A stretch of 63,418 nucleotides of DNA, counting the filler, from Candidatus Desantisbacteria bacterium CG1_02_49_89 (GTDB lineage Bacteria; Desantisbacteria; UBA1551): the NCBI GenBank assembly GCA_001871075.1. It is 4 parts of 4 records of this genome, joined end to end, with 100 filler letters (N's around TTAATTAATTAA, not from the genome) between each part and the next. Parts side by side here need not be neighbours in the genome. Positions count along the whole stretch, not along the records: positions 1 to 22,170 come from MNUP01000110.1; 3 more parts are not named here. One strand, given 5' to 3'. The notes beneath the pieces were generated by a model, which was not told where the DNA came from, did not search any database, and saw only the letters and a program-made list of their open reading frames with translations. This document shows positions 98 to 47,232 of this stretch, in pieces. The translations under genes and the position numbers were made by a program. Position 1 is the stretch's first letter, and each line of letters starts with the position of its first letter.

Positions 98-610
98 GTG
101 ATTACATTGATTAATAAAAAGATTACAATGATTATCAAAGTGAGACACTATGGGAAAGAAAGACGAATTCAGCGACTTAACTGAAAAGATCATCGCGGCA
201 TGTTTTGACGTCCACGGCGAGCTTGGCCCGGGATTTGTGGAAAAGATATATGTAAATGCCTTGAAAGTCGCATTGGATGAAAGGGTGTTAAAGCAGGAAA
301 CAGAAAAAGAATTCAGCGTACAATTCCACAATAGCCCGGCTGGTCAGTTCAGAGCCGATATAGTTGTTGAAGATTGCGTGATCATTGAAATAAAGGCAAT
401 AGAAGGATATATGCCAAAAATATTCGAAGCCCAGGTGATCTCGTACCTGAAATCATCGGGACTAAAAGTAGGTTTGCTGGTAAATTTCGGGAACAGGAGC
501 TGTGAGATACGGAGATTAGTAAATCCTAATTTTTAATTTACTTTAAATAATCACTTTGCAATCATTTTTAAAATAATCACCGTAATCATCTTTTAAAAAT
601 CACTGTAATC
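98..610. mobile_element. Candidate repeat-bounded element: GATTACANTGATT left arms + GxxExxY gene + AATCACYGTAATC right arms
   Basis: Left arms at 100-112 and 121-133; right arms at 549-563 (degenerate), 575-587 and 598-610 are their reverse complements; gene-less copies of the same arm pair at 11316-11532 and 45087-45163. Confidence 0.55.
150..536 (+). CDS. GxxExxY protein (PD-(D/E)XK nuclease-like, PDDEXK_3 family)
   Basis: 128 aa; LGPGFVEKIY is the GxxExxY motif; RADIVVEDCVIIEIK gives the D...ExK catalytic motif; C-terminal GLLVNFG is typical of the family. Confidence 0.92.
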   Translation: MGKKDEFSDLTEKIIAACFDVHGELGPGFVEKIYVNALKVALDERVLKQETEKEFSVQFHNSPAGQFRADIVVEDCVIIEIKAIEGYMPKIFEAQVISYLKSSGLKVGLLVNFGNRSCEIRRLVNPNF

Positions 611-625
611 AAAAAGAGAGGAATA

Positions 626-1633
626 ATGGAAAAGAAAATAAGGATCGGGGTGATCGGGCTGGGTATGGGGTGGTACCACTGCGATATGTACAAAAATATG
701 CCCGAAGCTAAAATACTGGCGCTGTGCGATTCTGATCCGGCAAGGCTGGACGCCGGGCAGAAGGCGTTCGGGGCGGAGCTCAAATTCACAAAATACGAGG
801 ATATGCTGAAAGTCAAAGAGCTGGACGCGGTCGCGGTCGCGACCCCGAATTTCCTGCACAAGCCCATGACGATAGCGGCGCTGGAAGCGGGCAAGCACGT
901 GATGTGCGAAAAGCCAATGGCGCTGGACGCGGCGGAAGCGCAGGACATGGTCAGCGCGGCGAAAAGCGCGAAGAAAAACCTGATGATACATTTCAACTAC
1001 CGCTACGCGCCCGAGTGCCAGTTCCTGAAGAAATATATTGACAGCGGGAACCTCGGCAGTATTTACTACGCCAAAACCGGTTATTTGCGGCGCCGCGGGA
1101 TCCCCGGAAGGCAGTGGTTCACCAGAAAGGACCAGGCAGGCGCGGGAGCGCTTTTCGATATAGGCGTGCACGCGCTGGACCTCGCGCTGTGGTTCCTGGG
1201 CCACCCGAAGATCCTTTCCGTGTCAGGCGTTACCTACGACAAGTTCGGTTACAAGATGAACAGTAAGAACTGGGTTTTTGACGTGGATGATTTCGGCAGC
1301 GGGTTCATAAAAATGGAAGGCGGCAAAACGCTCTATCTTGAAACAAGCTGGGCCGCGAACATACAGGACAAACTCTATATGACCCTTCTGGGAGATAAGG
1401 CAGGCGTCCAGAGGGACGGCGGGACAACCACGATCCTTGCGGAGGAGAACGGCGAGCTTGTTGACGTCACCCCTGCCAGTTATCCCCCGTGCATTAATGC
1501 CCAGAAGGAATTCGTGGATTCGATAATCGAGGGAAGAGAGCCGGCTGCAAGCGGTGAGCAGGGCCTTGTCGCGATGAAGATCCTTGACGCCATAGCGAAA
1601 TCCTCAAAAACCGGCAAAGAAGTAACATTTTAG
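626..1633 (+). CDS. Gfo/Idh/MocA family oxidoreductase
   Basis: IGVIGLGMG Rossmann motif, GKHVMCEKP, GALFDIGVH. Confidence 0.93.
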   Translation: MEKKIRIGVIGLGMGWYHCDMYKNMPEAKILALCDSDPARLDAGQKAFGAELKFTKYEDMLKVKELDAVAVATPNFLHKPMTIAALEAGKHVMCEKPMALDAAEAQDMVSAAKSAKKNLMIHFNYRYAPECQFLKKYIDSGNLGSIYYAKTGYLRRRGIPGRQWFTRKDQAGAGALFDIGVHALDLALWFLGHPKILSVSGVTYDKFGYKMNSKNWVFDVDDFGSGFIKMEGGKTLYLETSWAANIQDKLYMTLLGDKAGVQRDGGTTTILAEENGELVDVTPASYPPCINAQKEFVDSIIEGREPAASGEQGLVAMKILDAIAKSSKTGKEVTF

Positions 1634-5003: not shown

Positions 5004-5155
5004 GATTACACAGATTAGAACTGCGAGATTACACAGATTCAGCGGGCTGGTTTTGCCAGTTCAAATCAGTTATATGCAAAAACAGTGATAAACTGTGTTT
5101 ACATGGTTAAATTTGTTTTAATCGGAGTAATCGTCTTTTTGAAATCTGTGTAATC
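5004..5155. repeat. Inverted arm pair GATTACACAGATT x2 ... AATCGGAGTAATC / AATCTGTGTAATC
   Basis: Arms at 5004-5039 and 5120-5155 are reverse complements; variant of the arms around GxxExxY. Confidence 0.8.
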
Positions 5156-10540: not shown

Positions 10541-11317
10541 ATGCTTCCCACAGTGGACTTTTGCGGCCTTAAAGTAACGCGCCTGATCATCGGGGCAAAC
10601 CCGTTCGGGGGATTCAGCCACCAGAGCGACCAGCGCAGCCGGGAAATGGGCACCTATTATACTCCTGAGCGCATTAAGGAAACATGGCGCCGCGCCGAAG
10701 CCGCGGGCATCAATACGATGATAACCAACAATGAGTCAGCGCATGTTATCCAGGCAGTGCGCGAATACCTGGGCGAAGGCGGGAAGCTCCAGTGGATCGT
10801 GCAGGCCGCTAATTATAAAGCAGATATGTTCAAGGCTGTGGACGAAGCAGTAGAGATCGGGGCAAAAGCTATTTATTTCCACGGCGGGCAGGTGGATAAT
10901 CTATATGCAGGCAGGGATGAGAAAACCCTGCGCGCGTGGGTCAAGCACGCCCGCTCGCACAAGATCCCGGCCGGCATAGCAGGCCATTCACCGGACGTGC
11001 ACTTTTGGGTGGACAGCATGGATATAGTGGATTTCCACGCAGTGGCTTTCTTCAACTGCGGGAGCCTTCACAGCGGGAAAGGCCACAATTTCAAGCTGGC
11101 AGACGCGTTCCCCGCGGCGGAGTGCGCGCGCAGGATCAAAAAACCGTGCATCGCCTACAAGATAATGGCCGCCGGGCGCATTGACCCGGTAATGGCGTTT
11201 GAGTTCGCGTTTGAAAACATCAAGCCGGGCGACGCGGTGAACGTGGGCATGTACCGCGGTGACAAAGATAACATGGTTGAAGAGGACGCCGCCATCGTCC
11301 GCACTATACTGAGCTGA
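10541..11317 (+). CDS. Aldo/keto-reductase-like TIM-barrel protein of unknown function
   Basis: VTRLIIGANPFGGFSH start, KPCIAYKIMAAGR; strong AGGAG RBS. Confidence 0.65.
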   Translation: MLPTVDFCGLKVTRLIIGANPFGGFSHQSDQRSREMGTYYTPERIKETWRRAEAAGINTMITNNESAHVIQAVREYLGEGGKLQWIVQAANYKADMFKAVDEAVEIGAKAIYFHGGQVDNLYAGRDEKTLRAWVKHARSHKIPAGIAGHSPDVHFWVDSMDIVDFHAVAFFNCGSLHSGKGHNFKLADAFPAAECARRIKKPCIAYKIMAAGRIDPVMAFEFAFENIKPGDAVNVGMYRGDKDNMVEEDAAIVRTILS

Positions 11318-11532
11318 TTACAGTGATTTCAAAAATGATTACAGTGATTATTGAAATATAAGGAGAATAACAAATCTTGGTTTTAGTTTTTTTAAAATAA
11401 TCACCGTCCCTAAAGAACCCCTGCGTCTTGTCCCGATTCTTTTTATCGGGACTGCAGGAGTAATCAGCAGTTAGAAATCACCGTAATCATTTTCAGATAA
11501 TCACCGTAATCTGTGTTAAAATCACCGTAATC
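11316..11532. repeat. Empty GATTACAGTGATT / AATCACCGTAATC arm pair; one right arm is interrupted by a ~54-bp hairpin insert
   Basis: Left arms 11316-11328 and 11337-11349; right arms 11399 (split by the 11408-11461 insert), 11476, 11499 and 11520. Confidence 0.88.
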
Positions 11533-11553: not shown

Positions 11554-12609
11554 GTGAAGAAGTGGAAGGTGGGTTTCGTGGGAGTGGGCGGGATAGCGAA
11601 GTACGCGCACATGCCGGGGTGGAAGAACCTGCAGGGCGCGGAGGTTGTAGCGGTTTCCGACGTCAGGGAGGATGTGGCAAAGGCGTTCGCGAAGGACTTC
11701 GGCATAAAGAACGTGTTCACTGATTACAACAAGATGCTGGAGATGGATGAGCTGGAGATAATTGACATCTGCGCGCCGAACATGATCCATTATCCCGCGG
11801 CAATGGCGGGGTTCAAGGCGGGAAAACACGTTTTATCCGAGAAGCCGCTTACCGTCACTCCGAAGCATGTCCAGGATATGATCGACGCTTCAAAGAAGGC
11901 AAAAAAGAAACTATGTTCAATACAGAACCACAGGTTCAGGGCTGAAGCGCAGGTATTGAAAAAGATGATAGATAAGGGCGAGTGCGGCGAAATATATTAC
12001 GCGAGGGCGCACGCGCTCAGGCGCAGGCTTCTTCCGGTTGCCCCGACATTCATAAAGAAAAGCCTTTCCGGAGGCGGGCCGTGCCTTGACATAGGGGTGC
12101 ACGCCCTTGACCTTACTTACTGGCTCATGGGCCACCCGAAGGTCAGATCGGTAAGCGGCGTCGCCCTTACAAAACTGGCGAAACGCGAAGACATCCACGG
12201 GGACTGGGGCGAGTGGGACAGGAAGGCGTATGACGTTGAGGACTTCGCCGCTGGATACGTGAAATTCGCCAACGGCGCCAGCCTTACCCTTGAATGCAGT
12301 TTCCTGCTGAACACAAAGGAGAATGAGGTATTTTCGGCGCAGGTATTCGGCACGGAAGCGGGCGCGTACCTGCCCTGGGGAAGCCCTCCTGAGATATACA
12401 CGGAAAAGAACCGCACTTTCATGGTGAAACAGCTGGTAGGCCTGCCGCAGGTTGCCACGCACAGCGAGGAGATCAGGCTTTTCCTTGAGGCGGTTGACAA
12501 GAACAAGGAAGTTCCCGTTCCGCCGGAACAGACGCTTGAAGTGATTAAAATACTTGACGGGGTTTACCGCTCAAGCAAGTCCGGCCGCGAGGTAAGATTC
12601 ACAAAATAA
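11554..12609 (+). CDS. Gfo/Idh/MocA family oxidoreductase
   Basis: VGFVGVGGIA, GKHVLSEKP, GGGPCLDIGVH, DVEDFAAG. Confidence 0.93.
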   Translation: MKKWKVGFVGVGGIAKYAHMPGWKNLQGAEVVAVSDVREDVAKAFAKDFGIKNVFTDYNKMLEMDELEIIDICAPNMIHYPAAMAGFKAGKHVLSEKPLTVTPKHVQDMIDASKKAKKKLCSIQNHRFRAEAQVLKKMIDKGECGEIYYARAHALRRRLLPVAPTFIKKSLSGGGPCLDIGVHALDLTYWLMGHPKVRSVSGVALTKLAKREDIHGDWGEWDRKAYDVEDFAAGYVKFANGASLTLECSFLLNTKENEVFSAQVFGTEAGAYLPWGSPPEIYTEKNRTFMVKQLVGLPQVATHSEEIRLFLEAVDKNKEVPVPPEQTLEVIKILDGVYRSSKSGREVRFTK

Positions 12610-23633: not shown

Positions 23634-23750
23634 GATGACAGCGATTTTAAAATACGATGTCAGCGATTAAATGACGATTTTAAAGATAAAAGAAAGATAT
23701 CAGCGATAAGGATTTTATCGCTGCAATCGGATCTTTTTATCGCTGCAATC
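23634..23750 (+). repeat. 117-bp dispersed element (GATNNCAGCGAT arms), copy 1
   Basis: About 90% identical to the reverse complement of 33334-33451; supplies the last codons and stop of the MFS gene. Confidence 0.88.
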
Positions 23751-33333: not shown

Positions 33334-33451
33334 GATTACAACGATGAGAAGATCCGATTACAGCGATAAAATCCTTATCGCTGATATCTTTCTTTTATCT
33401 TTGAAATCATCATTTAATCGCTGATATCGTCTTTTAAAAATCGCTGCCATC
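33334..33451 (-). repeat. 118-bp dispersed element, copy 2 (inverted)
   Basis: Reverse complement aligns end to end with 23634-23750 (about 11 differences). Confidence 0.88.
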
Positions 33452-42109: not shown

Positions 42110-44008
42110 TCACTGTTTCAATTTGGCTTCAAGGTTTTTAAACAGCGCGGAAAGCAGGACTGCCAGCTGCTCGTTATTGACCTTGCAGTTCACGAATGTA
42201 AACTCACATTCAAAGTTCTTGTATGTCCCCATCATATTGAGTGTGTATGTCCTCTGATTCTGGGTAGGCGCGATTATTACTTCTTTGATAACGGTTTTTC
42301 CCGCGGGAGGGGCATCCAGCTTTATATCCTGCAGGACCTCCATCGCGACTCCGGGCGTGCCCTTGATTCTCTCCCATTTGCTTTTTATGGATTTTTCCTC
42401 AGCGGCAAGGAAAGAGGCGGCATCTTTATTCTCGCGGAACATAAGCAGGGCCGCGGAAATAAAAGCGGTATTGCCTTTTGCGAATGTAAGAGAATACCCC
42501 TCGTTAAAACCCTTCAGCGTTTCTTCTATTTCTTTCGGGGTAAGGCCGGTTGAAAGCCCCGCCCTGAGAAGCATTTCGTTGATCTCTCCTCCCTGCTTCT
42601 GCCATTTTTCCTTTTCGGGCGCTATGACCCTCTCAAGAACGGACAGCAGGGAAAAATAGTCTTCTTTTGCAAGCAATTCCTTTTCGTAATAAAGCTGGGG
42701 CTGCATAACGGCGGACAGTTTTTTCGGAGGCGAATTAAACAACCGGGTGATACCCGGATTTCCTTCTTTTTCATGGACGAATTTAATGAATTCCTCTCCC
42801 CTCACATATATCTGCTTGAACCTGGTGCTTACGACCTGGCGGGCGCCCTCGTCAAAAACGGAAGCCTCACCAAGGTCACCGGAGGTGAACATCATTCCGA
42901 ACCTGACGTCTTCCTCCTTCAATCCCATTTTTTCAGCCACCTTGCGCGCCACAAAAACCGCGTGCCCCTCAACTATGCTTTCAAGTATTCCCAGTTCGTC
43001 CTGGCTTTTCGGTTTTATTATCCTTGCCGAGATGCCGTAATTCTGGTCATCAAGAGCATGGACCATATCGTGCGCGACCAGAAGGACCATGATGTTCCTG
43101 ATCTTATCTTTTGAAGGTTTTACAAGCACTACATTCCTCTGAAAAGTATCGGGGACCATATACAGGTTGCCGTCCGCGAACTCATAAAGCTCGGGTATTA
43201 TCTCGGAATAAAACTCTGAGAACAGGCGCGAATTGAGCTCGATCTGTTTCCTGTCCGCGCCCGGGCTGACGCTGACCGACTGCGCAACGAGCCTTTTTCT
43301 TTCTATCTCACCCAGCTCATCGGGAGTGATGATCCTGAGATCAACTTCTTTCATGAACTTTAAACCCGTTATTTCTTCTATCAGGGGCCTGGCAAGGCGC
43401 ATCGCCTCTTCCATTACCGCCGGCGTAACGTCAAATTTCAGGTCTTTTGCCGCAAGTTCAATGTATTTACGGAAAGCTTCTCCCGACTCTTCATACTTCT
43501 GCATCTTGCGCAGTACCGAGGCTTTATTCGCCCAGGCGCCCGGATATTTCGGGTCCAGCCTTATCGCCTCGTCATAACTCCGCAGGGCGTCCTCAAGCAT
43601 GCCCTTCCCGTATTGCGCGTTGCCCTTATAAACCCACGCTTTGACTTTTTTCGGTTTCAGTATCAGCGCTCTGTCTAATGCCTCGATCGCCCTGTCCGGA
43701 TCACCCATTGAATCCAGGGCTAAACCCAGGTTCATCCATGCTTCCGCGATCCTTGGATCCTTCTGGATGGCCGTCTGGTACAGGTTCACGGCTTCCCTGT
43801 ATCTTTTGTCTTTCAGCAGCTTGTTGCCTTTTCTTACAAAGGACCCCGCGCCCGTTAACATAAAATATACTGACAGGGACACCAGCAGTCCGGCAAAACA
43901 TACTGCCGCAGCGATCATGAAGATTTTTTTCTTGCCTGCGCTCATGCCCTGTTCAGGATCCTGCTGCTGCCCGCCTTCACCGCTTCCGGTTTCTTCTTCT
44001 CCGTTCAT
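42110..44008 (-). CDS. Membrane-anchored TPR protein with a zincin-like C-terminal region
   Basis: One TM, about 4 TPRs, then AHDMVHALDDQ...EGHA; ATGA overlap with the upstream gene. Confidence 0.75.
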   Translation of the reverse strand: MNGEEETGSGEGGQQQDPEQGMSAGKKKIFMIAAAVCFAGLLVSLSVYFMLTGAGSFVRKGNKLLKDKRYREAVNLYQTAIQKDPRIAEAWMNLGLALDSMGDPDRAIEALDRALILKPKKVKAWVYKGNAQYGKGMLEDALRSYDEAIRLDPKYPGAWANKASVLRKMQKYEESGEAFRKYIELAAKDLKFDVTPAVMEEAMRLARPLIEEITGLKFMKEVDLRIITPDELGEIERKRLVAQSVSVSPGADRKQIELNSRLFSEFYSEIIPELYEFADGNLYMVPDTFQRNVVLVKPSKDKIRNIMVLLVAHDMVHALDDQNYGISARIIKPKSQDELGILESIVEGHAVFVARKVAEKMGLKEEDVRFGMMFTSGDLGEASVFDEGARQVVSTRFKQIYVRGEEFIKFVHEKEGNPGITRLFNSPPKKLSAVMQPQLYYEKELLAKEDYFSLLSVLERVIAPEKEKWQKQGGEINEMLLRAGLSTGLTPKEIEETLKGFNEGYSLTFAKGNTAFISAALLMFRENKDAASFLAAEEKSIKSKWERIKGTPGVAMEVLQDIKLDAPPAGKTVIKEVIIAPTQNQRTYTLNMMGTYKNFECEFTFVNCKVNNEQLAVLLSALFKNLEAKLKQ

Positions 44009-45075
44009 TTCCATTCTACTATCACCTTCCCGCATTCTTTCGCTGCCGCTGTCTCAAAAGCCTCTTTGGCTTTTTCGATCGGAAACCTGTGCGTAACCAT
44101 TTTTTCCAGGTTTGTTTTATGCTTCAGCATAAAACCCGCAAGCTTGTCATACATGCCCCTGGGCATTATAAAAGAACCCCTTATGCTGGTGTCGCGCCCT
44201 ATAAACCAGTTCGGTATCGGCGCGCCGCCCGCCACGGTAACCGCCCTTCCGTCAAAAGTCAGGAGCTGCAGCATCCATTTCATAGCGTCCTCGGAACCGC
44301 TGGTTTCGTATCCGGCGCTGAAAGATCCGGGGAACTTTTCCCTGATATCGCCCCATATCTTTTTCGGGTTCTTGTCGGCTTTTACCGCGTCTATGTCCAC
44401 AACCATATCAGCTCCGAACTTCCGCGCCAGGCCCAGCCTTATCTCGCGCCTTCCGAACGCCGCGACCTTCGCGCCCATAGCCTTTGCCATCACAACCCCG
44501 CACAAACCCACGGGCCCCAGCCCGAATATAGCTATGTCATCAAGGCCGCTCAGTCCCAGTTTATTCAGCGCCGCGAAACTTGTCTGCGCGCCGCAGGCTA
44601 TGAAAGCCCCGTCCACAAAGCTCAGGCCTTCGGAAAGGACCATGCAGTTCCTTTCCGGAGTAACCTTGAGATCCGCGAATGAACCCTGGCAGCCTATCTG
44701 TCCCATGCCTTTTGTTTTAGAGCATCGCATAAAATAACCTTTAACGCACTGCTCGCACTTGCCGCAGCTTTCATAATGGTATATGCTGACGCGGTCGCCC
44801 GGCTTCACGGACGTCACGCCTTCCCCGGTCTCTTCCACTACGCCTGAACCTTCGTGGCCGGGTATGGGCGGGTATGGTTTTGCGTCTTTGAATTTTGCGT
44901 CCATCTCCTTCTGCTTTTCCGGCGGAACTTTATAAACGTACTGCTTAAGGTCGCTGCCGCACACGCCGGAAACCTTGATCCTTACCAGGACCTCTCCGGG
45001 ACCCGGTTTCGGGTCAGGGAATTCCCTTACTTCTGATCTTGAATCGCCCAGCAATACCAGAGCCTTCATTTTCAC
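44005..45075 (-). CDS. Zn-dependent alcohol/sugar dehydrogenase (MDR family)
   Basis: GVCGSD, GHEGSG, CGKCEQC..G...C, GLGPVG. Confidence 0.92.
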   Translation of the reverse strand: MKMKALVLLGDSRSEVREFPDPKPGPGEVLVRIKVSGVCGSDLKQYVYKVPPEKQKEMDAKFKDAKPYPPIPGHEGSGVVEETGEGVTSVKPGDRVSIYHYESCGKCEQCVKGYFMRCSKTKGMGQIGCQGSFADLKVTPERNCMVLSEGLSFVDGAFIACGAQTSFAALNKLGLSGLDDIAIFGLGPVGLCGVVMAKAMGAKVAAFGRREIRLGLARKFGADMVVDIDAVKADKNPKKIWGDIREKFPGSFSAGYETSGSEDAMKWMLQLLTFDGRAVTVAGGAPIPNWFIGRDTSIRGSFIMPRGMYDKLAGFMLKHKTNLEKMVTHRFPIEKAKEAFETAAAKECGKVIVEWK

Positions 45076-45086
45076 TCCTCTAATGT

Positions 45087-45163
45087 GATTACAGTGATTA
45101 GTAATGAGATTACAGTGATTATTTTAATATCACCGTAATCATAAGTTAAAAATCACCGTAATC
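45087..45163. repeat. Minimal empty GATTACAGTGATT x2 / (A)ATCACCGTAATC x2 element
   Basis: Arms at 45087-45099, 45108-45120, 45129-45140 and 45151-45163. Confidence 0.9.
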
Positions 45164-45167
45164 ATTC

Positions 45168-46994: not shown

Positions 46995-47232
46995 GCTACC
47001 TCCTTTTTTTGAACTTGATTACAGTGATTTCTAACTGCGATTACGGTGATTAAACCAAGTGTCAAGGGTCAAGTATCAAAAGTCAAGTTAAAACTATGAT
47101 CTCTGTGCCGTAGCCCGCCACGATTATTGGCGGGCGAAGGTCCCTGCGTTATAGCTCCGGAATCATCGGAGCTGCAGGGAACTCCGTGTCTCCGTGGTTA
47201 TTCTTTTAAACTTTTGACTTTTGACTTGCCTT

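Follow-up and report, generated by a model that had tools for sequence, protein, structure and literature searches.

A GxxExxY nuclease gene enclosed by inverted word arrays: a probable mobile cassette in Candidatus Desantisbacteria bacterium CG1_02_49_89

Results

The cassette at 98-610 and its neighbors

The window analyzed here, a stretch of 63,418 nucleotides from Candidatus Desantisbacteria bacterium CG1_02_49_89, consists of four contigs joined by runs of N, and the source genome comprises 2.48 Mb in 150 contigs. Starting 150 bases from the start of the first contig, the PF13366 gene of the window (150..536, plus strand) was recognized as an open reading frame (ORF) with profile matches and encodes a GxxExxY/PD-(D/E)XK nuclease of 128 aa. 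Two copies of GATTACNNTGATT in forward orientation precede it and two in reverse orientation follow it. The forward words at 100-112 and 121-133 on the plus strand form the inner left arm, 21 bases apart with the central letters AT and AA, and the reverse words at 575-587 and 598-610 on the minus strand form the right arm, 23 bases apart. A degenerate third reverse word, the innermost (549..563, minus strand), was read directly; it is two bases longer than the 13-mer with more than one mismatch, and a degenerate innermost word is common to many other arms too. The right arm ends 15 bases ahead of the start codon of a GFO/IDH/MocA oxidoreductase gene (626..1633, plus strand), a neighbor lying outside the cassette. 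The nuclease gene and both neighboring genes share one strand. Mirror-image words around the gene had been reported in a preliminary description of this DNA, and direct reading and pattern search agree on them.

The true left flank is visible solely in the metagenome contigs L021 and L022, which are identical over their shared part. In these contigs an outer left array of three full consensus-type words and a fourth partial word (L021 2052-2125) begins on the TGA stop codon of an upstream PHP-domain gene, and about 330 AT-rich bases separate it from the inner words at 100-133. With their AT and AA centers the inner words are unlike the types found genome-wide (AG, GG). A search of L021:1900-3100 against Rfam at E up to 1 returned just two sub-threshold snoRNA-like matches, on the word array, and a scan of L021:2000-3050 gave 4 promoter-like sites against 3.7 expected and 0 terminators.

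The predicted protein

The gene had been described as encoding a GxxExxY protein, and this identity is borne out by matches to PF13366 (PDDEXK_3; 117.5 bits against a cut-off of 22, E 5.2e-34) and to TIGR04256 ('GxxExxY protein'; 124.3 bits against a cut-off of 35, E 3.1e-36). Both the GxxExxY motif and the PD-(D/E)XK catalytic residues are present, the D...ExK triad is conserved, and the residues G28, E31, Y34, D70, E80, K82, Y99, N112 and F113 were invariant in 48 aligned sequences. No conserved cysteine was observed among the invariant or nearly invariant columns of these 48 sequences, which argues against an iron-sulfur cluster. An AlphaFold2 model (pLDDT 94.7) shows an alpha-beta core, with Cas4 SSO0001 as the nearest solved fold (4ic1, E 2.9e-4, TM 0.57), followed by MGME1, RecE, lambda exonuclease and AddAB nuclease domains. 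A sequence search of solved structures with the 128-aa protein gave no match. The protein has at least 570 relatives at E 1e-10 or better, and the function of PF13366/GxxExxY is given as unknown in an excerpt of PMC3424549.

Gene-less and related arrays within the window

At up to one mismatch, the window contained 19 matches to GATTACNNTGATT, whereas 100 shuffles averaged 1.00 (sd 1.03, maximum 4). All of the gene-less copies noticed on first inspection, the pairs at 11316-11532 and 45087-45163 and the half at 47017-47051, were recovered by the pattern search. The copy at 11316..11532 contains forward words at 11316-11349 (+,+), a 126-base center and reverse words at 11476-11532 (-,-,-). Its forward words start on the upstream stop codon and its reverse words end 22 bases before the next start codon, which belongs to another GFO/IDH/MocA paralogue. 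The compact doublet at 45087..45163 has a pair of words in each direction (+,+,-,-). Folded as a DNA single strand, 45083-45167 reached -13 kcal/mol on the plus strand and -17.6 kcal/mol on the minus strand (z -5.0 and -7.7, respectively). The remaining copy, at 47017..47051, is a single arm of two words on the plus strand, located directly upstream of a minus-strand gene start.

Additional arrays had been labeled as variants, which is a fair description. The array at 5004..5155 is a gene-less doublet (+,+,-,-) of the sister word type ACACAGATT, with one mismatch per word. Those at 23634..23750 and 33334..33451 were read directly as inverted arrays of related ACAGCGAT-type words enclosing no gene, and neither contained a GATTACNNTGATT match at up to 1 mismatch. 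The word at 33334..33451 resembles the arms of 60-72% identical relatives in other phyla.

Association of arms with genes in the genome

A flank score was calculated for every ORF by local alignment of the 250 bases upstream with the reverse complement of the 250 bases downstream, using a threshold of 37; family genes were trimmed to their profile match and the background used ORF borders, a slight difference between the two. A score of at least 37 was observed for 50 of 2205 ORFs (2.3%). The genome contains five PF13366 genes, the paralogues being 37-44% identical to the window copy; all five have inverted-repeat flanks, and each of their arm sets is of a different word type. Their flank scores were 44, 23, 64, 43 and 37, so that four of the five passed (hypergeometric P 1.2e-6); arm-flanking is therefore commoner at these genes than at random genes of the genome, in line with what the preliminary description had proposed. 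A start codon on the same strand follows all five GxxExxY cassettes.

Two other families were compared by the same measure. Four-helix-bundle genes (PF05635) gave 11 matches, two of which are halves of one broken gene, and 6 of 9 testable genes passed; their arms, like those of the GxxExxY genes, are built of tandem 7-9-base words. When the best 11-mer of an arm type was counted genome-wide, each GxxExxY or four-helix type gave about 11 to 184 occurrences. Genes matching the RAYT-like Y1 transposase family (PF01797) numbered 10, nine RAYT-like and one IS200-like, with 6 of 9 testable passing. The RAYT arms are ordinary hairpin REPs of other sequence than the GATTAC words, and no GATTAC word was found within 1 kb of any RAYT gene of the genome. 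A portion of the ORFs with inverted-repeat flanks (34 of 50) were outside the GxxExxY, four-helix-bundle and RAYT families. Within the genome, the gene-plus-arms layout is specific to GxxExxY and four-helix-bundle genes.

Relatives and co-variation of word and protein

Scanning of metagenome contigs for relatives gave 40 loci, in which the GATTAC-type word GATTACNNNGAT was scored within 300 bases upstream (forward) and downstream (reverse). Among relatives of at least 47% identity, which are not independent (the 36 loci compared represent 9 genomic contexts, with L055 and L058-L060 left out), 35 loci were testable: GATTAC-type words stood on both sides in 31 and on one side or more in every case. 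Among homologues of 45% identity or less, the words were on both sides in 1 of 20 and on any side in 2 of 20, a set made up of 3 loci from metagenomes, 15 from other genomes and 2 paralogues within this genome. Comparison of arm sequence with protein phylogeny had been suggested as a check, and the word type does go with the protein clade across phyla. Several of the homologues at 33-45% identity, from eight other genomes, also had word-built inverted arms, and 4 of 15 testable distant homologues in other genomes reached a flank score of 37.

The relatives form only two large syntenic groups. In group A (13 loci) the cassette lies between a cobA-hemD fusion gene and hemB, and in group B (14 loci) it is flanked by genes for a sensor kinase and a response regulator; Pfam was applied to two loci per group. 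Cassettes of both groups are co-oriented with their operons. Proteins of 60-72% identity come from sources whose names span Omnitrophica, Chloroflexi, Planctomycetota and WOR-3. This identity is too high for such distant hosts, so inheritance has not been solely vertical, and to judge by the protein sequences the cassette appears to have crossed phyla.

Within group A, dN/dS was 0.03-0.08 (35 informative pairs) and dN was not above that of hemB. In orthologous cassettes the words, which read GATTAC and GAT around three free letters, were conserved despite a synonymous divergence of 0.5-2.4, at which synonymous sites are near saturation, and whole word-plus-spacer units were gained and lost among these cassettes. 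The protein is kept intact, with its catalytic residues, under strong purifying selection.

Presence, absence and decay at the hemD/hemB junction

The cassette was observed at the hemD/hemB junction in 13 metagenome contigs. GTDB genomes were searched with the group A HemB and 80 loci were kept, of which one (L065) had a GxxExxY protein beside hemB. Twelve loci had a HemB of at least 76% identity, eleven of them with an upstream flank. These eleven testable junctions included one filled (L065), eight compact and without words (L062, L063, L064, L066, L084, L085, L087 and L121), one remnant (L061) and one with another repeat insert (L081). In most of the compact junctions the hemD stop codon overlaps the hemB start codon as ATGA. 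In L061 two words of the left arm and the initial bases of the cassette remained, and unrelated repeats came next. At filled loci hemD ends within the first word, which provides its final codons and stop, and the hemB ribosome-binding site is untouched. Comparison of filled with empty junctions placed the insertion point within a few bases, with no clear target-site duplication.

The filled and unfilled states were placed on a HemB tree of 26 rows (10 filled, 16 not; L025 and L050 were taken out as duplicates, and L035, L042 and L088 lacked sequence). At least 6 changes of state are needed, 5 of them forced by well-supported (starred) branches, and the filled L026 and the empty L064 are sisters with a support of 100/99. 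The state label is weakly clustered on this tree, since 38-43 of 500 shuffles needed as few changes. In one case, L028 and L029, the cassette showed 0 differences over 427 bases between flanks that were 7-10% different, and the identical tract ran from within the left arm to about 80 bases into hemB. Filled, empty and remnant states, which the preliminary description had proposed to look for in relatives, therefore all exist at one orthologous junction, and the presence/absence polymorphism it relied on is real. The gene and its arms are one unit that was gained, lost or decayed several times at one junction in a Dehalococcoidales clade.

At the locus of the window itself (L021:1500-4300), the contigs of four sequencing runs had the filled form throughout and no empty allele was observed, although contigs cannot show rare variants. 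Joints recorded as 'skips 820-826' were considered as a candidate empty allele and rejected; their sides measure 21-29 letters and are separated by additional letters, which identifies them as other repeat copies. G001, the sole same-order genome compared (87% complete), contained no GxxExxY match with this query and no GATTAC word.

Distribution of the word across the genome

A total of 315 exact words were observed genome-wide in 150 clusters (about 150 loci), mostly as pairs 21-23 bases apart, and 307 of the 315 were outside ORFs in a rough ORF set covering 87.5% of the genome. The pattern GATTACNGTGATT occurs 303 times here, whereas a search of 40 other genomes gave 0-3 occurrences per genome; the control, the pattern read backwards, occurs 0-1 times. 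Only 1 of the about 150 word loci carries the nuclease gene. Many other short-period repeat families fill the same genome.

For the following counts, a denotes a forward word on the coding strand and b a reverse word. Clusters between co-directional genes (n=120) contained b only in 78 instances, a only in 12 and both in 30. The b arms mostly end 6-26 bases before an ORF start; among single b arms of two words, 45 of 49 end at most 26 bases before one, two of these two-word arms lying at or past the longest-ORF start. The a arms begin from 2 bases inside the upstream stop codon to 7 bases after it. Arm orientation agreed with the direction of flanking genes for 180 words against 67. Gene-less clusters were convergent in 33 instances and divergent (b then a) in 0. 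Part of this a/b placement is attributed to the use of very short operon spacers as insertion sites together with the stop codons inside the words. A surplus of single arms in one orientation is not predicted by a palindromic mobile unit.

A degenerate partner arm was sought upstream of the 78 single b arms and none was established; allowing up to 3 mismatches gave a match in 19 of the 78 spacers, mostly words of other families. Spacers with single b arms hold arms of other word families, the left-type of one with the right-type of another. In these other families a-type arms also lie near stop codons and b-type arms near start codons, some families being mostly a and others mostly b. We looked beside 185 arms for a conserved inner module: 59 had a partner arm within 110 bases, 24 had CTTGAYAC words and 99 had neither. 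Where arms were paired, the central letter differed in 41 of 45 word pairs, compared to 24.3 expected from the margins, which indicates that the doublets are one asymmetric unit copied in two orientations. This asymmetry, taken as the strand of the G-T wobble, had no fixed relation to transcription (antisense 24, sense 14).

The genes just behind a word array are enriched in paralogues, with 24 pairs observed compared to 4.6 expected and none of 500 random sets as high. An array precedes 6 of the 28 GFO/IDH/MocA-like and 4 of the 11 zinc-dehydrogenase-like genes, against 4.4% overall, and the genes behind b arms are enriched in sugar-type oxidoreductase paralogues.

Discussion

Taken together, these observations suggest that 98-610 is probably one copy of a mobile and likely selfish single-gene cassette, the nuclease of which would recognize its own arms. 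The unit consists of a minimal Cas4/RecB-like PD-(D/E)XK nuclease gene within inverted arrays, each of 2-4 copies of a 13-bp word at a spacing of 21-23 bp. Word type tracks the protein, and the protein is therefore most likely the reader of its own arms. In the proposed model, several protein copies would bind the phased words of both arms, the nuclease would cut at or beside the arm words, and repair of the break would copy or move the unit into gene junctions; the arm would provide the upstream gene with a stop codon and leave the downstream ribosome-binding site intact. In this reading the predicted nuclease would be what drives arm cutting and movement. We read the gene-less arrays as most likely non-autonomous copies and remnants, with L061 as an example of remnant origin, and a single gene may act in trans on all of the roughly 150 arrays of this genome. 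Arms built alike also surround the four-helix-bundle genes, whose products are no nucleases, so the arms may be served by something besides their cargo. Relatives of the nuclease evolve as slowly as hemB, and a domesticated host gene would look alike. Ordinary homologous allele exchange could account for the state changes seen on the HemB tree.

The polarity of the arms could also reflect an element acting at the RNA level, similar to the ORF-bearing intervening sequences (IVS) of 23S rRNA. Arms transcribed within the operon would pair into a long stem, and RNase III, or the GxxExxY protein working as a ribonuclease, would cut this stem and so separate the cistrons. The single arms scattered ahead of start codons would then act in the RNA, as processing sites or in translation control. 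A same-strand start codon after each of the five cassettes of the genome, the co-orientation of both syntenic groups with their operons, and the ties of arm orientation to gene direction (180 against 67) and of arm position to stop and start codons are consistent with this, because a polar process such as transcription would yield such polarity and plain duplex DNA would not. Excerpts of PMC4990558 also describe four-helix-bundle genes, found here in cassettes of the same build, as known cargo of rRNA intervening sequences excised by RNase III. However, the variable letters of paired words are not compensatory, differing in 41 of 45 pairs, and of the pairs with a G-T wobble, 14 have it on the sense and 24 on the antisense strand. 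Single arms are unable to form a stem, the nearest folds are DNA nucleases, and the coming and going of a DNA unit would be unexplained. We therefore consider an RNA-level element unlikely.

Slower still to convince is a domesticated host system, in which a sequence-specific DNA-binding factor would use the arrays as operators near ribosome-binding sites and the mobile appearance would be a historical remnant. The low dN/dS (0.03-0.08) with a dN not above that of hemB, the fixed syntenic position and the conservation of words at orthologous sites fit such a system, as does the enrichment of array-preceded genes in paralogues (24 pairs compared to 4.6 expected), with the GFO/IDH/MocA-like (6/28) and zinc-dehydrogenase-like (4/11) genes as examples. 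Its catalytic residues are nevertheless invariant, and the gene is dispensable at hemD/hemB in close relatives. Five paralogues with five word types and about ten four-helix-bundle cassettes in one 2.5-Mb genome, and a word essentially missing from 40 other genomes including one same-order relative, also speak against domestication, which we regard as improbable. Finally, the arms might be ordinary host repeats spread by RAYT or slippage with small genes merely between them, as the many repeat families, the nine RAYT-like genes and one IS200-like gene, and the 34 of 50 inverted-repeat-flanked ORFs belonging to none of the three families might suggest, but this is very improbable given the strong enrichment (P 1.2e-6), the hairpin-type arms of other sequence at RAYT genes, and above all a word type that follows the protein clade in unrelated phyla and contexts and a whole unit that is present or absent with exact borders, the last two of which bring it close to refuted.

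Returning to the selfish cassette, a broader proposal can be made, which we put forward tentatively and with less confidence than the reading of the locus itself. GxxExxY and four-helix-bundle cassettes may form a new class of mobile elements without a transposase of any known family, in which a 125-aa nuclease would read a clade-specific 'word code' in phased end arrays and copy itself into operon junctions; the cassette would bring a stop codon and spare the ribosome-binding site, and gene-less arms would multiply until they make up most intergenic DNA in some genomes. We found no description of arms around GxxExxY genes in the literature searched. That the gene and its arms are gained and lost together points to an undescribed kind of selfish gene cassette. 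If GxxExxY is the active part of a mobile cassette, the very large PF13366 family gains a role, and a class of short-period intergenic repeats in many uncultivated phyla would be accounted for. The cassettes would also offer a compact set of natural protein-DNA word pairs with diversified specificity, and would connect the long-puzzling ORF-bearing rRNA intervening sequences with a broader family of cassettes that insert at junctions. Genome annotators would then count such arrays neither as CRISPR-like repeats nor as regulatory motifs.

Comparison with known systems

The preliminary description had drawn a parallel to RAYT/REPIN or IS/MITE arrangements. This holds in that a gene within inverted repeats is also found as gene-less copies; it does not hold in that single arms dominate, the words are not hairpins, and four-helix-bundle genes are armed alike. 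As in REP/RAYT systems, the gene lies inside inverted copies of a many-copy repeat, gene-less inverted doublets exist, and one genome houses several families that differ in their repeat; the present genome also contains true REP/RAYT examples. The enclosed gene, however, matches PF13366 only and not the Y1 HUH transposase family PF01797, the members of which lie elsewhere. REPs are hairpins with a GTAG head, whereas the arms here are phased arrays of a non-palindromic 13-bp word, and most gene-less copies are single arms at a fixed place before start codons. As in IS/MITE pairs, an autonomous copy occurs alongside many shorter gene-less copies with common ends, but no known transposase family is involved here and single ends dominate.

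The phased, multi-site inverted ends are also similar to those of Tn7 and Mu, in which each end holds two to four direct copies of a binding word, about two helical turns apart, and the ends are inverted. TnsA of Tn7 is itself a PD-(D/E)XK nuclease. Those elements also need a DDE transposase, whereas here the nuclease is the only gene. The best structural matches of the protein were to nucleases of the Cas4/RecB/lambda-exonuclease type, with the D...ExK triad conserved, but it has 128 residues where those have about 200. Cas4 has four cysteines holding an iron-sulfur cluster and a cas neighborhood, in contrast to the PHP-domain and oxidoreductase neighbors observed here. One hint of a homing endonuclease gene, whose enzyme would cut gene-lacking alleles so that the gene is copied in along with short flanking tracts, comes from L028 and L029, with an identical cassette inside diverged flanks.

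ORF-bearing intervening sequences of 23S rRNA, as in Coxiella burnetii and Leptospira, are similar in placing a small ORF of about 0.4-0.5 kb within complementary arms at a site tolerated by the host, and excerpts of three sources describe them as acquired horizontally and then kept (PMC4990558, PMC3936711, PMC11270868). The present genome also has their four-helix-bundle cargo (PF05635), in cassettes built identically. The cassette at 98-610 differs from them in its setting at protein-gene junctions in place of a 23S or 16S rRNA helix, in its nuclease cargo, and in arms that are arrays of words.

Gene-less arrays and the genes that follow them

The convergent gene-less clusters, or doublets, in which a forward arm of 13-bp GATTAC-type words is paired with a reverse arm, were found to be asymmetric. 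Across 33 such clusters genome-wide, e.g. those at positions 11316-11532 and 45087-45163 of the window, the paired words of the two arms shared the same central letter (A or G) in 4 of 45 pairs, versus 20.7 expected. Because paired words almost never agreed in this letter, a doublet consists of one 'G arm' and one 'A arm'.

Paralogues were over-represented among genes immediately preceded by a GATTAC word array, with 24 pairs observed genome-wide versus 4.6 expected. Of all ORFs, 4.4% were preceded by such an array; the share was 6 of 28 for GFO/IDH/MocA-like genes and 4 of 11 for zinc alcohol-dehydrogenase-like genes. Array-preceded genes within the window include those at 626-1633, 11554-12609 and 44005-45075.

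Intergenic spacers throughout the genome were also observed to be mosaics of different word families (e.g. G000:C144:3093-3126 and G000:C61:6741-6774). Left-type arrays of one family lay by the stop codon, and the arrays close to the start codon were right-type and belonged to a different family. The dominant array type, left or right, varied between families.

The gene-less arrays at window positions 23634-23750 and 33334-33451 were built of a ACAGCGAT-type word. Arms of this type were observed on none of the five GxxExxY nuclease genes found in this genome (93.5% complete); the word resembles the arms of 60-72% identical relatives in other phyla.

Positions of cassettes and divergence of their flanks

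Outside the window, four small cassettes were observed side by side in 5.5 kb (G000:C114:4833-10316). Two of them carry GxxExxY genes, one a RAYT-like gene and one a four-helix-bundle gene; every cassette has inverted arms of its own. At L017 1307-1381 (G000:C17), another GxxExxY cassette of this genome starts approximately 110 bases past a tRNA-Glu gene.

On metagenome contigs, five group B loci (L036, L037, L039, L044, L045) contained the cassette inside kinase/response-regulator operons. At these five loci a gene-less doublet of the cassette's own word was observed at the next downstream gene junction, with an additional doublet immediately after the GxxExxY gene.

Two further metagenome loci, L028 and L029, place the cassette at the hemD/hemB junction. 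Their cassettes had zero differences across 427 bases, against 7-10% in the hemD and hemB flanks. Identical cassettes within diverged flanks suggest that the cassette alone was recently transferred or gene-converted.
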